In this document: positions 31,469 through 38,888 of the stretch, piece after piece | How the letters are laid out: every line of letters begins with the position of its first letter | How positions within the stretch are numbered: the first letter of the stretch is position 1 | Assembly: GCA_947258355.1 (NCBI GenBank) | Contig: CAMYIC010000059.1 | Span: 65,648-129,647 of the forward strand | DNA from: an uncultured Allomuricauda sp. | GTDB taxonomy: Bacteria > Bacteroidota > Bacteroidia > Flavobacteriales > Flavobacteriaceae | Length of the DNA: 64,000 nt | Direction of reading: 5' to 3' | Made by a program: the position numbers and the translations under genes | The notes under the pieces: model-generated | What the model saw: the letters and a program-made list of their open reading frames with translations, nothing else | Told to the model about the DNA's origin: nothing | Database searches by the model: none

Positions 31469-31515
31469 GCTTTTTTTAAAAGCACTGAATTTAAATTAAG
31501 GAAGGAGGAAATAAT
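31469..31515 (-). repeat. Array element copy 1 (diverged)
   Basis: Plus strand ctttttttaaaagcactgaatttaaattaaggaaggaggaaataat aligns with copy 6 (gttttgctgaaaatagggaatttagtttaggctgagagggtaataat). It abuts the stop codon at 31519. Confidence 0.55.
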
Positions 31516-31518
31516 ACT

Positions 31519-32148
31519 TTACAGCCTTTGTTTTAGCGCATTTTTGTTGATAGTCAAATTAAGGCAAACCGTCCATGAAAGGATCAGTACAAAAGCAATT
31601 TTCTGAATGATAGGGGAGTATTGGGTTAGATTTTCATTGTAGTAGAAGTAGTTGTTCATCCCCACAATTAGAATACAAAAGACGCCCATTACCATTAACA
31701 TGATCAACCGATTTTTGTACAGGGCTCGTAACATTCCAATGATGACCAGAGTGCCAAATACACTTAAAATGGTGGTCATAATATCATGGTATATGGTAAA
31801 AATGAAACATGCCGATAACATACCCAAGGCCCCCGAAATCTTAATGGTTATGTTCCAATTTCTATTTGTCTCAAAATGGTTCGCAAACTGAAAGAAAAAG
31901 ATGATCATACTGGCGCAAAGCAGTGTTATGCCAACAATGGCAACGGGTCTTGCTTGGTTTTGAACGCCATTCAAGGCATTTTCACGCATTAAGTTGCACC
32001 AATGATTGTTGAGCCAATCAAAACCTGCTGAATTTACATCTGCCAGCGAACCCCCGGGGTATAAATTGGAAGCATAAATGTAAATACCGATAAACACCAG
32101 TATTCCTATGGTGGGAAGAAATCTTAATAATCCTTTTGGGTTTATCAT
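31519..32148 (-). CDS. Polytopic membrane protein, unknown function
   Basis: 209 aa with about 6 hydrophobic segments. No family recognised with confidence. Confidence 0.7.
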   Translation of the reverse strand: MINPKGLLRFLPTIGILVFIGIYIYASNLYPGGSLADVNSAGFDWLNNHWCNLMRENALNGVQNQARPVAIVGITLLCASMIIFFFQFANHFETNRNWNITIKISGALGMLSACFIFTIYHDIMTTILSVFGTLVIIGMLRALYKNRLIMLMVMGVFCILIVGMNNYFYYNENLTQYSPIIQKIAFVLILSWTVCLNLTINKNALKQRL

Positions 32149-32195
32149 ATCCCTCAGTTGTTACAAATGTGCAACCATGTTCTCAGCTATGATTC

Positions 32196-32259
32196 TTTGT
32201 TGTAATAAATGTAGGGAAATTAGTTTAAGGTGGGAGAGGGACAATAAATTATAGTCCCT
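32196..32259 (-). repeat. Array element copy 2 (core plus hairpin-capable tail)
   Basis: Plus strand tttgttgtaataaatgtagggaaattagtttaaggtgggagAGGGACaataaattataGTCCCT. Confidence 0.7.
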
Positions 32260-32273
32260 GTTCACAACAGTTT

Positions 32274-32897
32274 TTAAATCTGTTCAATCTTCTTATAGAT
32301 TTCCTTTTTAGAGTTCTCAAATAATTCTCCACCAAACTCTTCATTGTCCAAAGAGATTATCGAAATGTCCCTTATGCCCATAATTCCAAAAACGAACTTC
32401 AAGTAGGTTGTTTGGAAATTCATGTGTTCATTTTTTTCGTTTTCCCCATAACCTGTGTCACCACGACTGGACAGTATGAACATTTTCTTGTTTTCAAGCA
32501 TACCCACATAATCCCCGTCTGGTTTGCCTGAACGGAATTTCCAGGTTTCGTTGATTCGCATAAGTTGGTCGATGTAAGCCTTTAGTCCGCTCGGAATGGA
32601 CCAGTTGTACATGGGCGTCCCTAAAACATAAATATCATGTGCTTTAAACTCTTTTACCAATGCATCACTAAGGGCAACACCTGACTGGTTTTCTTGTGTT
32701 CTTTCACTGGGTTGGACGAATGCACTTGCAATCCATTTTTCATTGATGGGCGGGATTGCTTCCAGGCCTACTTCTCGATGGGTAAAAAGGTCGTTCGGAT
32801 GTTTTTTTTGCCAATTTTCCTTAAAAAGTTGTGTCAGCTTTCTACTGTGCGACCTTTCCTTTCGTACACTTGCGTTGATGATCAATATTTTGTTCAT
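32274..32897 (-). CDS. azoR: FMN-dependent NADH-azoreductase / NAD(P)H:quinone oxidoreductase (flavodoxin-like fold)
   Basis: 207 aa. N-terminus KILIINASVRKERSHSRKL and the region GTPMYNWSIPSGLKAYID, typical of AzoR-type proteins. Confidence 0.8.
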   Translation of the reverse strand: MNKILIINASVRKERSHSRKLTQLFKENWQKKHPNDLFTHREVGLEAIPPINEKWIASAFVQPSERTQENQSGVALSDALVKEFKAHDIYVLGTPMYNWSIPSGLKAYIDQLMRINETWKFRSGKPDGDYVGMLENKKMFILSSRGDTGYGENEKNEHMNFQTTYLKFVFGIMGIRDISIISLDNEEFGGELFENSKKEIYKKIEQI

Positions 32898-32962
32898 AAT
32901 TCATATATTTTTAATTACGAGACAAAATTCCGAATCTGGAAAGTGAAAAAAATTGACCTAGT

Positions 32963-33550
32963 TCAAGATGCATCGATTTTTTTTCGAATTCTACTTAAAA
33001 ATTCAGCAGAAATGCCCAAATACGAAGCAATGAGATAGTTGGGTACTTTTTCGGCTATTTTGGGATAGTTTTCCAAAAATTCCAAATAGCGTTGTTCAGC
33101 GTCAAGCGTTTTATTTAAGATGATTCTTTTCTGCAAACTCCCTAGATAATTTTCCAGGATGATTCTAAAAAAGCGCTCCAATTTTGGAAGTTGCCTTAGC
33201 ATTTCTTGAAAAGAGCCGTGGCTTATTTGAAGCAGCGTGGTTTTTTCAATGGCCTGAATGTTGTAGATGGATGGTCTTTGTTTTTGAAAACTATCCATAT
33301 CCGTTGCCCACCAGTTTTCAATGGCAAAATATAGGATCTCTTCCTTTCCCGTTTCTGGGTTGATGTAAAAAGCCTTTAATGCACCGTCCACCACAAAATT
33401 ATCGGTACGGCAGGTTTGTCCGTTTCGCAACAGATAATCCCCTTTTTCAAGGGTTTTTTCCGTCCAAAACGTTTCGATTAAATGGGCTTCCTCGGAACTT
33501 AAGGTAATGTATTTGGAAATTGATGTAATGAGTCCCTCTTTCATATCCAT
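32963..33550 (-). CDS. Crp/Fnr family transcriptional regulator
   Basis: cNMP-binding beta-barrel (GDYLLRNGQTCRTDNFVVDGALKAFY) and a C-terminal HTH (NYLIASYLGISAEFLSRIRKK). The ORF track starts at TTG 33559; the ATGs at 33550 or 33544 are likelier. Confidence 0.85.
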   Translation of the reverse strand: MDMKEGLITSISKYITLSSEEAHLIETFWTEKTLEKGDYLLRNGQTCRTDNFVVDGALKAFYINPETGKEEILYFAIENWWATDMDSFQKQRPSIYNIQAIEKTTLLQISHGSFQEMLRQLPKLERFFRIILENYLGSLQKRIILNKTLDAEQRYLEFLENYPKIAEKVPNYLIASYLGISAEFLSRIRKKIDAS

Positions 33551-37442: not shown

Positions 37443-37510
37443 TGGAGGTTGGTTTCCCTAAAGATATGATTTTAATGTATTGGATTAGGAAAAAATGAGT
37501 TAGGGCCGTT
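37443..37510 (-). repeat. Array element, variant subfamily copy 8
   Basis: Plus strand tggaggttggtttccctaaagatatgattttaatgtattggattaggaaaaaatgagttaggg. Confidence 0.7.
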
Positions 37511-37529
37511 GTTGTGCTCGGTATTTAAT

Positions 37530-38021
37530 TTATTGTGTGTTGGTAAAAGTATCCTCGAAATTCTTTATCCAATTTCCATTGATCAATTGCTCCCCGTATT
37601 CAATAAAGCCTCCCTCGGGAGTGCTGCTGAAAAAAAACCGTGTCTTTTCATCTCGCCACACAATGAGTTTACCTTCCTTAAATGCTGCAGGATATCTAGC
37701 GGCACCTTCTTTGGAAAATCGGTAGTAGTAATAGGTTTGGTCCGCTTCGTCATACAGGATGATCGTATGGAGTTGCAAAAACTCGGTATTCAGCTCAATT
37801 ACCAGGATGCTCCTGTCCAAATCATAGGAAATCTTTTCGTATGCAGCACCTTGCTTGGTGACAACCCCGTTTTCGTACGTTTTTGATGTGCCCACCCATT
37901 CTCCGACCAAGAAGCTTAGTTGCTCCATTTTTTCGTGCTTTAGTTCTTGGGCCAAAACGGCATCGAACAGAAAAAACAGCACGATAAAACCAAAGAATTT
38001 AGAAGCTTTTCGATATCCCAT
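37530..38021 (-). CDS. Secreted hypothetical protein (possibly a lipocalin/DUF1579-like beta-barrel)
   Basis: The ORF track starts at GTG 38066. The ATG at 38021 gives MGYRKASKFFGFIVLFFLFDAVLAQ, a clean signal peptide. Confidence 0.65.
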   Translation of the reverse strand: MGYRKASKFFGFIVLFFLFDAVLAQELKHEKMEQLSFLVGEWVGTSKTYENGVVTKQGAAYEKISYDLDRSILVIELNTEFLQLHTIILYDEADQTYYYYRFSKEGAARYPAAFKEGKLIVWRDEKTRFFFSSTPEGGFIEYGEQLINGNWIKNFEDTFTNTQ

Positions 38022-38078
38022 ATTTGTTGGTTTACCTGTAAGTACAACTATCTCAGCCGTAATCACGTCTTTAAGTAA

Positions 38079-38123
38079 TTTGTTTTCTTAAAAATAGGGA
38101 ATTTAGTTTATGCTAGGGGCTGG
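38079..38123 (-). repeat. Array element copy 9 (strong)
   Basis: Plus strand tttgttttcttaaaaatagggaatttagtttatgctaggggctggg. Confidence 0.85.
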
Positions 38124-38148
38124 GTTATAACTTGTATTGGAGATTTTT

Positions 38149-38838
38149 TTAAGATACCCATAACTCAAATGATTTAAGAATTTTCCATTGGCCATTTACC
38201 TTCTCCATTATTACAAAGTTACCACTGGCACAAAGTCCGCCACAGTGGTATGAATAGTAAAAAGCTGCATAATTGTCCTGATAATTAATTCTGGATAATT
38301 GAAACACTAAGTCCGTTCCATATTTTGCCTTGATTCTTTTCCATGCATTTCTTCTATACCGATTTCCCCTGTGGATTAAGGAGTAAAACTTATCCAAAGT
38401 CATTGTTAGCACCTCAACCCCATGCAAGTCGAACAGGTTGGGTTCTATTTTCGGATGATTTTCAAAATCCTGTATTAAATCTGCAATTACTTTTTTTAGT
38501 TTTTTGTCATTTTTAAATCTTGACTGAGTAATCGTATCCTTGTATTTAAATAACCAATTTAATGTAAATGAATCTATGGAATCCTTGCTGAGTTCGTTAA
38601 CAAGGCTAAGGTCTTGCTTGTATCTGTTATCATACTTTTCAATTACAACTATGGAATTTAAGGGGCCTCTAAACCAGTCTTCAATTATTCCATTTAGTAT
38701 GGAGGAATAAATTTTATAACTATCGGATTTGGTCTGAGTAAAACCAAAATTTGCACTAAGAATTAAGATGGATAGTATTAGTATTCGTAATATACCCAAC
38801 GGTCTTGTCCATGATTTCATCCTTCGGTTATTTGGCAT
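38149..38838 (-). CDS. Secreted hypothetical protein
   Basis: 229 aa with a signal-like LGILRILILSILILSANFGFTQ. The start is ATG 38838 (inside the repeat) or ATG 38820 (MKSWTRPLG...). Confidence 0.65.
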   Translation of the reverse strand: MPNNRRMKSWTRPLGILRILILSILILSANFGFTQTKSDSYKIYSSILNGIIEDWFRGPLNSIVVIEKYDNRYKQDLSLVNELSKDSIDSFTLNWLFKYKDTITQSRFKNDKKLKKVIADLIQDFENHPKIEPNLFDLHGVEVLTMTLDKFYSLIHRGNRYRRNAWKRIKAKYGTDLVFQLSRINYQDNYAAFYYSYHCGGLCASGNFVIMEKVNGQWKILKSFELWVS

Positions 38839-38888
38839 CTTAAAAACAGGGATTTTAGTTTAGGAGGGAAGGACTTTTACAGCCCTCG
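38809..38888 (-). repeat. Array element copy 10 (extended form plus hairpin-capable tail); the last copy on the upstream side of the array
   Basis: Plus strand ccatgatttcatccttcggttatttggcatcttaaaaacagggattttagtttagGAGGGaaggacttttacagCCCTC. Confidence 0.8.

Follow-up and report, generated by a model that had tools for sequence, protein, structure and literature searches.

A conserved intergenic repeat as a putative boundary site of integron-like gene cassettes in a flavobacterial hot spot

What does a repeat do that recurs, always in the same orientation, between small genes that have nothing else in common? The question is raised by a 64,000-nucleotide stretch of the genome of an uncultured Allomuricauda sp. 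(Flavobacteriaceae; assembly GCA_947258355.1, contig CAMYIC010000059.1, positions 65,648 to 129,647; this whole stretch is called the window here), in which 11 co-oriented minus-strand genes at 31.4-38.9 kb have one and the same element in most of their spacers. The array is located in a hot spot between the core genes DUF885 and DUF2268 in Flagellimonas, Muricauda and Allomuricauda. On balance we lean towards an explanation in which the repeat would mark the boundaries in a cassette array that resembles an integron but is non-canonical, and whose cassettes are reshuffled at a conserved core, a reading that draws on the comparison of genomes.

An earlier note on this DNA, made from the letters alone, had described the co-oriented repeat, and its existence is borne out both by a grouping of the repeats in the window (8 of 40 nt and 6 of 63 nt) and by a profile built from the element copies, which yields 8 minus-strand matches with E = 4.5e-21 to 1.5e-9 and no comparable match in the other 56 kb. 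Chance does not account for this repeat: the 39-mer given in the note has 0 expected chance occurrences. The number of copies, put at about eleven in the note, is reduced to 8 clear copies, 1 weak copy and 1 copy with a deleted core (Table 1). All of them lie on the gene strand at 31.4-38.9 kb, and the profile search detects none in the rest of the window, including the spacer 40642-40683, which had rightly been described as free of the element. A supposed variant subfamily at 36531 and 37443 turned out to be a separate 76-nt repeat, the 5' end of a DUF6090 gene. For the diverged copy reported near 35280, a remnant of the element is present (35270-35334), but most of its core is lost; and the ~40-nt core that had been reported is real but falls short of the full element, which measures ~105-120 nt and begins 0-15 nt past the stop codon. 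The weak copy, situated before the FAD oxidoreductase, reaches only E = 0.24 when it is held out of the profile, and its orthologues in relatives are clearer, with 4 mismatches. The impression that the region is more AT-rich than its surroundings is correct (G+C 0.35-0.39 in the array versus 0.40-0.47 in the flanks), and the gene descriptions of the note agree with Pfam (DUF6090, SnoaL_2, PD40, DUF6326, a cNMP-binding regulator, Flavodoxin_2 and FAD amine oxidase).

The anatomy of the element emerges when 52 copies, taken from the window and its relatives, are aligned. In the direction of the genes, the stop codon is followed after 0-15 nt by (c)AAC-AAT-GGCTATAATTCATTG, a C/T-rich run of ~12 nt and the core CTAAACTAAATTCCCTACTTTTAAGAAAA, which is conserved strongly and uniformly over all its 29 positions. 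Downstream of the core follow an A-rich linker, an optional ACCCAAAGGTCGAAATC insert and a 3' arm, AT(A/G)GCC-N6-GTTGG, which is present (as ATAGCC-N6-GTTGG) in about two thirds of the copies; element copy 4 of the window is without this arm because the next open reading frame (ORF) begins 13 nt after its core. In 37 of 55 cases the core lies 38-56 nt past the stop codon. How far the next start is from the core depends on the gene, with values from 8 to 287 nt and no ORF beginning less than 8 nt past the core; the first cassette of the window has a nominal upstream ATG that overlaps the core, its likely start lies downstream, and this start codon sits within the 3' part of element copy 1. The stop codon of the membrane-protein gene F19/G010 is found within the first block of the next element. 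Cores are 467-3964 nt apart (median ~1 kb) with protein-coding genes between them, which supports the earlier exclusion of CRISPR, as does the only CRISPR-like Rfam match, which at 29.6 bits falls below the threshold of 45. A search for tandem repeats gave nothing relevant.

Is such an element peculiar to this array? An exact-match search for TAAACTAAAWTCCCTNYTTT across 185,579 species, each represented by one genome, returned 62 loci. Every multi-copy same-strand locus among them belongs to Flagellimonas, Muricauda or Allomuricauda; one single copy occurs in a Maribacter genome, and the other matches are single chance matches in unrelated taxa. A scan of 241 million metagenome records contributed 14 further real loci, and the viruses, plasmids and phages of IMG/VR, PLSDB and INPHARED contain no match. 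An att site of a phage, plasmid or integrative and conjugative element was rejected on this result, together with the lack of any tRNA in the window. At up to 6 mismatches there are 76 copies of the core in 33 loci, on one strand within each locus, and each genome has one element locus, with the exception of F. okinawensis, which has two. A search of genomes for the core, as proposed in the earlier note, hence finds it co-oriented at one locus per genome and not dispersed.

The window itself represents a species of the Flagellimonas group, its DNA being at most 94% identical to any representative genome. In most relatives the array adjoins DUF885, and in several genomes it is closed by DUF2268; between these anchors the content and order of the cassettes, which are 0.5-4 kb long and comprise 1-3 genes, vary from species to species. 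Minimal arrays consist of one cassette, a different one in each (loci L009 and L116): the Crp and azoreductase genes are the sole cassette in Muricauda sp. NFXS6, and the membrane-protein gene F19/G010 is the sole cassette in L116. At the other end of the range F. profundi has at least 10 elements, and F. lutimaris possesses a further element and cassette after the FAD amine-oxidase-like gene; no element follows DUF885 in one Flagellimonas sp. and in Pontimicrobium. The secreted-protein gene F13/G007 is found behind four different upstream genes in the relatives. All 76 copies keep a single orientation, even at locus L002, where a cassette gene is inverted. Among the relatives the cargo includes glyoxalase, DinB, DUF4440/SnoaL and beta-lactamase-fold proteins, esterases, an O-methyltransferase, a cyclophilin and an AAA_15 ATPase, a cargo typical of chromosomal cassettes.

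Orthologous loci thus differ in content, and homology between them breaks at the element, which makes the integron-like cassette junctions with a non-canonical site, one of the options of the earlier note, the best fit to the different cassettes and orders. Where exactly the breaks occur can be read from pairs among the 76 copies in which just one neighbouring gene, upstream or downstream, is shared. With the same downstream and a different upstream gene, identity is 0.81 over the 60 nt 3' of the core and 0.65, near the baseline, over the 55 nt 5' of it. With the same upstream and a different downstream gene, identity is 0.30 for the 60 nt 3' of the core and 0.66 overall for the 55 nt 5' of it, the latter rising to 0.69-1.0 where the upstream genes are orthologous. 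The baseline, with both genes different, is 0.44 on the 3' and 0.63 on the 5' side. The 5' half of the element stays with the upstream gene and the 3' half with the downstream gene, and exchange therefore takes place within the core or at its edges. In alignments of close relatives unrelated sequence gives way to 98-100% identity where the core begins, and in the reciprocal alignments near-identity stops just past TTTTAAGAAAAC. Ends of BLAST blocks recur at 38110, the first bases of the core of copy 2, where the homology of the downstream cassette to five relatives starts, and at 33576, 6 nt past the core of copy 6, where the homology of the upstream cassette to the relatives stops. By genome comparison, then, the exchange point lies inside the ~30 nt of the core.

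A second set of recombination points is formed by the 5' repeats of DUF6090. The 76-nt repeat comprises the upstream region and the first 17 codons of this gene, and its copy at 36486-36561 heads a truncated ORF; compared with an Allomuricauda metagenome-assembled genome, the window shows an insertion of DUF6090 plus an element that is bounded by these repeats, so that DUF6090 5' ends are breakpoints as well. Some element-free junctions vary, too. Further copies of the DUF6090 5' repeat are numerous in the arrays of relatives (L053, L056). The truncated remnant in the window also contains a match to the DUF805b RNA (RF02914; 36421-36453, minus strand; 36.6 bits versus a threshold of 35.6), 22 nt upstream of the SnoaL-like gene and with no adjoining DUF805 gene.

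How might cassettes be exchanged at the core? Recombination between near-identical cores would exchange the cassettes that they delimit, and the simplest route would be homologous recombination, whether inside one genome or with DNA arriving from relatives. Underneath there may be an integrase-type reaction at the GTT box, older or less frequent, of which a few cassettes may still bear traces. The core would at the same time give each cassette its own promoter and a short unstructured leader, and a promoter or leader role would explain why the core is kept under selection.

The evidence for the latter role comes from the sequence TAyTTTTA within the core. Promoters of the Bacteroidota sigma-A type have a -7 box, TAnnTTTG, and a TTTG at -33, about 19 nt upstream, with the transcription start just downstream; in the housekeeping genes of the window TAnnTTTG precedes the ATG by 24-32 nt. 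Of the 6 specified bases of this box TAyTTTTA has 5; in the tightest cassettes it precedes the ATG by 22-26 nt, and the most variable position of the core is the first n of the TAnnTTTG-like box; on the gene strand there are no intrinsic terminators between the cassettes. From these sequence features the core is probably also a promoter, or a short unstructured leader, for each cassette, and the shared promoter or leader that the earlier note listed as a further option is plausible as a second role. It could even be argued that the element serves only as a promoter or 5' leader common to the cassettes, which would make the array a regulon, e.g. under its own Crp/Fnr-type regulator, and the rearrangements incidental. 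Such a regulon would be in keeping with the position of the element, always upstream of ORFs and co-oriented with them, with the promoter-like distance of TAyTTTTA, with the unstructured element and the missing terminators, and with the minimal array whose sole cassette is Crp/Fnr plus azoreductase. However, a regulon promoter should recur at other loci, yet the element occurs at a single hot spot; it is placed more strictly with respect to the stop codon upstream than to the start downstream; neither the blocks that follow the stop codons nor the pattern of breakpoints is explained; and an inverted cassette gene leaves the orientation of the element unchanged. We thus consider a pure regulon improbable.

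Several points weigh against the boundary-site reading that we prefer. A core of 29 nt offers little length for efficient RecA-type recombination, and by itself homologous recombination leaves it unexplained that the core is 87-100% identical versus 44-63% for the flanks. The breakpoint can be placed only to ~25-35 nt, and single-nucleotide polymorphisms in the core define no single crossover; the set of pairs is small (16 same-upstream and 34 same-downstream pairs after removal of duplicates and DUF6090 paralogues). As regards the promoter, no TTTG is found at the right distance for a -33 element, the box ends in A and not in G, the whole 29 nt are conserved and not the box alone, and the corresponding motif of other genera, AAATTC(C/G)CTAC...GTTAG, is a poor match to the -7 consensus. 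A few cassettes have perfect inverted boxes at their own ends (see below). Finally, the search for a recombinase covered 8-22 kb around each array, and a recombinase unlinked to the array is possible.

The last point deserves attention, because a dedicated, unlinked site-specific recombinase that acts on the double-stranded core would make the array a new cassette platform. It would account for the strong conservation at all 29 positions, including the would-be promoter spacer, for breakpoints confined to the core, for the single orientation of the 76 copies despite the inverted gene in L002, for the restriction of the element to one locus and for the location of the core at the symmetry centre of the outer inverted boxes. 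Yet no candidate enzyme is found near any array: phmmer searches with IntI1 and XerD against six-frame ORFs detected no tyrosine recombinase in the window and none in the Flagellimonas array loci (as a positive control, three were matched by this search in unrelated loci), and Pfam identified no recombinase among the flanking genes. The neighbouring DUF885 gene was considered for this role and rejected, its product not being a recombination enzyme. In addition, the core is without the inverted arms around a 6-8-bp spacer that are expected of tyrosine recombinase sites, the best arms of its dyad symmetry being 60-70% complementary, and DUF6090 repeats and element-free junctions are sites of rearrangement as well, which general recombination explains. 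A dedicated recombinase is accordingly an unlikely explanation in our judgement.

Secondary structure is missing from the element. RNAalifold yields no consensus structure; as single-stranded DNA, core regions fold worse than shuffled sequences (z = +0.65 to +1.9), and the full 142-nt sites fold no better than shuffles on either strand (z = -1.7 to +1.8). Rfam 15 contains no family that matches the element at gathering or permissive thresholds, and is itself without an attC family. A selfish repeat of the repetitive extragenic palindromic (REP) or miniature inverted-repeat transposable element (MITE) type that colonised the spacers would find some backing in the multiple copies and in weak terminal inverted boxes (CAACAATGGCTAT ... 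ATAGCC-N6-GTTG). Against such a repeat speak the lack of a stable palindrome, the one orientation at one locus, the fixed position after stop codons and the absence of further copies elsewhere in the window or, by the exact-core scan, in the genomes, so that we regard it as very improbable. A locus-restricted REP family that drives gene gain and loss was another option in the earlier note; restriction to a locus holds, and gain and loss are compatible with our data, but without a palindrome the element does not resemble a REP. A Rho-utilisation site was also considered, the element being C-rich and G-poor, and this idea was dropped because its C>G skew is unexceptional within the window.

The most familiar system with such a layout is the integron, and a canonical integron remnant, a cluster of attC sites that lacks an integron-integrase (CALIN), has to be weighed in some detail. 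The array would then contain a lineage-specific attC, with the core as an unusual variable loop, and an integron integrase encoded elsewhere in the genome would recombine the folded strand at G|TT of the 3' box; a CALIN may be without an integrase next to it. The outer blocks of the element are indeed inverted and in attC order and geometry, CAAC...GGCTAT versus ATAGCC...GTTG, with GGCTAT and ATAGCC as inner boxes, and the loose outer boxes AAC and GTT occur in this order in 45 of 61 and 21 of 40 copies, respectively. They resemble attC only loosely, however (...AAC-N3-GGCTAT ... ATAGCC-N6-GTT...), and the strict RYYYAAC is found in 0 of 61 and GTTRRRY in 1 of 40 copies. The earlier note had seen no attC boxes in the right order; AAC...GTT boxes in attC order do exist outside the core that it had defined.

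Some cassettes are bracketed by inverted boxes of their own, as integron cassettes are. These are GTTGTAAACA/TGTTTACAAC in the cassette G025 of locus L006 (10/10 positions), GTTGGCAAAC/ATTTGCCAAC in the PD40 cassette of the window (9/10), and the boxes of the Aquimarina PD40 cassette (10/10, with one compensated change from G-C to A-T). The signal is weak overall, with p = 0.03 in an anchored and p = 0.59 in an unanchored test, and complementarity of the two arms at the same junction has p = 0.70. In Aquimarina the spacer after PD40 (L155:8925-9010) forms an attC-like imperfect hairpin of -13.1 kcal/mol (z = -2.5). Cargo and cassette sizes are integron-like as well. On the other side stand the strict boxes, the missing hairpin and consensus structure, and the missing tyrosine recombinase in the 64-kb window and at all array loci. 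Moreover, cognate arms are no more complementary than non-cognate ones (median duplex energies of -6.6 versus -6.7 kcal/mol), and the most widespread cassettes (glyoxalase and the 160-aa protein) begin 9-13 nt past the core and are without a 3' arm. Nor is the boundary rule of integron cassettes obeyed, by which the border is the G|TT of R', the whole attC accompanying the upstream ORF and TTRRRY the downstream one: the 3' arm moves with the downstream gene, and only a minority fits the rule (L006 G025 and PD40). We do not file the element as an attC because the consensus is unmet, there is no hairpin, the 3' arm follows the downstream gene and no recombinase is nearby. The element looks related to attC-type sites but works differently now, and a canonical CALIN strikes us as rather unlikely.

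Returning to the boundary-site reading, the comparison with integrons and CALINs (e.g. the VCR arrays of Vibrio) shows where the likeness ends. Both have co-oriented, small, unrelated and mostly uncharacterised or detoxification-type genes in cassettes of ~1 kb, each followed by a lineage-specific repeat of ~100 nt right after the stop codon; at one fixed position in the chromosome, relatives differ in the cassettes and their order; AAC...GTT outer boxes and complementary inner boxes stand in attC order, and some cassettes are bracketed by their own inverted boxes. In contrast, the present array has no nearby integrase, its site has no hairpin and does not conform to RYYYAAC/GTTRRRY, exchange takes place at the centre of the site instead of at G|TT at its 3' end, one third of the sites are without a 3' arm, and there is a promoter-like box, whereas integron cassettes are mostly promoterless. 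Genome surveys of 2016 and 2022 (Cury et al. PMC4889954; Neron et al. PMC9024848) list for Bacteroidetes only In0 elements and one complete integron, in Salinibacter ruber.

Within the same phylum, the rAID-1 arrays of gut Bacteroidales (Ross et al. 2019, 10.1101/471110; PMC12247911), the nearest analogue described so far, have an XerD-like tyrosine recombinase at their 5' end and orphan immunity genes; they are defined by a recombinase at least 44% identical to BF9343_RS08045 and at least 2 co-directional genes with G+C of at most 41% and conserved intergenic motifs, which are described as integron-reminiscent, while the mechanism of assembly is given as unknown. Set side by side by description, the two types of array share low-G+C co-directional genes and repeated intergenic motifs, but no tyrosine recombinase was found here, and the gene at the 5' end is DUF885. 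Among 10 cassettes of the window and 20 of its relatives Pfam detected no immunity families, and a rAID-like array of immunity genes was rejected, as the cargo does not fit. Mobile promoters (Mob Genet Elements 2012, PMC3575422) likewise have near-identical upstream sequence before non-homologous genes; the copies described here, in contrast, are confined to one array, include 3'-end sequence of the preceding gene and coincide with breakpoints. In the literature consulted we found no description of integron-like arrays in Flavobacteriaceae or Muricauda.

One cassette leads beyond the Flagellimonas group. Homologues of the PD40 protein with 80-89% identity occur in at least 10 other Flavobacteriaceae genera, including Pontimicrobium, Aquimarina, Tenacibaculum, Maribacter, Kordia and Winogradskyella, and homologues with 60-75% identity in Cytophagia, and the best Allomuricauda match of the protein is only 70%; the core gene DUF885 stands at ~80%. 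This pattern of identities appears to count for horizontal mobility. In six other genera (loci L154-L159) the PD40 gene is part of long co-oriented runs of small accessory genes, in which the repeat is irregular and no integrase is present within 8-10 kb; the runs of Kordia and Tenacibaculum include SUKH/SMI1 immunity-type genes. A more far-reaching reading, which we hold to be unlikely, would be a hitherto unrecognised cassette platform of marine Flavobacteriaceae that parallels integrons, with a double-stranded, non-hairpin site of ~110 bp whose 29-bp centre would be both the crossover of a dedicated, unlinked recombinase and the promoter of the following cassette, allowing expression of all cassettes, and with the Flagellimonas array as its most regular form. 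On this reading the looser PD40-linked arrays of Aquimarina, Pontimicrobium, Kordia and Tenacibaculum, which share AAATTC(C/G)CTAC...GTTAG, would be its relatives.

Integrons are regarded as almost absent from Bacteroidota, where the rAID-1 arrays are the only comparable ones, and an array that is reshuffled between species with neither a linked integrase nor hairpin sites is of interest for this reason. Cultured strains of F. lutimaris, F. profundi and M. lutisoli carry the array and provide a tractable example, in which it can be tested whether a short conserved core can maintain cassette arrays by recombination, and whether a promoter per cassette solves the problem of expressing distal integron cassettes. 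The occurrence of the same cassette gene in at least 10 genera points to a pool of small accessory genes that moves among marine Flavobacteriia.

Table 1. Anchors, cassette genes and element copies in the window, listed in the direction of transcription. The cores of copies 1 to 7 have 1-6 mismatches to the 29-nt consensus.
Feature	Position	Strand	Remarks
5' anchor, DUF885 core gene (576 aa)	38911..40641	-	~80% identical across Flavobacteriaceae genera
Element copy 1	38794..38899	-	core 38863-38835; directly 3' of DUF885 stop codon
Secreted hypothetical protein, cassette gene	38149..38838	-	likely start 38820; without Pfam family
Element copy 2	38042..38147	-	core 38111-38083
Secreted hypothetical protein F13/G007, cassette gene	37530..38021	-	
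DUF6090 cassette gene	36705..37442	-	own upstream region; no element before gene
Element copy 3	36590..36692	-	core 36656-36628
Truncated DUF6090 5' remnant	36486..36561	-	84% identical to 37398-37473
SnoaL_2-like protein, cassette gene	35992..36399	-	Pfam
Element copy 4	35872..35948	-	core 35912-35884; without 3' arm
160-aa N-anchored hypothetical protein F09/G008, cassette gene	35389..35871	-	
Degenerate element copy	35262..35362	-	core mostly deleted; 3' arm ...CCAACC-GTTGGCAAAC retained
PD40 lipoprotein, cassette gene	34329..35252	-	flanked by inverted GTTGGCAAAC / ATTTGCCAAC boxes
Element copy 5	34201..34315	-	core 34279-34251
DUF6326 cassette gene	33690..34103	-	four different contexts in relatives
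Element copy 6, best copy	33554..33646	-	core 33610-33582
Two-gene cassette	32274..33550	-	Crp/Fnr-type regulator 32963-33550 and flavodoxin-like azoreductase 32274-32897
Element copy 7	32169..32264	-	core 32228-32200
Polytopic membrane protein F19/G010, cassette gene	31519..32148	-	
Weak element copy 8	31444..31536	-	core 31500-31472, 7 mismatches
Last cassette, FAD amine-oxidase-like gene	29532..31367	-	
3' anchor, DUF2268 gene	27531..28274	-	

The flanks of the arrays show some further features. In many relatives (L037, L050, L006, L011, L008, L107 and L152) DUF885 is followed by a conserved opposite-strand ORF of ~90 aa without Pfam family and then by variable defence-like genes (an AAA_15/OLD-like ATPase, a TIR-like protein, or a nucleotidyltransferase with a pentapeptide protein) before the first element; the window has neither this ORF nor the defence-like segment. 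In a F. lutimaris-like metagenome contig (L112, ~6290-7322) the distal end of the array consists of an extracytoplasmic function (ECF) sigma factor and a membrane protein, possibly an anti-sigma factor, followed by RsgA, which sets this distal flank apart from that of the window. A strong bidirectional intrinsic terminator (27008-27032) with a 10-bp stem and 6 G-C pairs, the only convincing one in 27-44 kb, is located just beyond the hot spot of the window. In the opposite flank of the array, a gene of the thiol-activated (cholesterol-dependent) cytolysin family (43759-45432, plus strand; Pfam E = 4e-77) is present in this marine flavobacterium and keeps the same TPR and LRR neighbours in F. 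profundi (L152).

A second repeat, which is palindromic (GTCATTTCGA...TCGAAATGAC), occurs beside or inside the arrays of relatives (L116 at ~1090-1990, L034 and L037), and twice it stands directly 3' of a core truncated after TAAACTAAATTCCC. In the window it is found as CTCGACTGCGCTCGACATGAC at ~11560-11620 and 8717-8850, and the ORF 8717-9352 looks like translated palindromic repeats. In the same part of the window a LexA-like repressor gene with HTH_3 and Peptidase_S24 domains (11623-12378, plus strand) adjoins a radical-SAM/HHH gene (10180-11442) and a DUF4130 gene (9353-10129).

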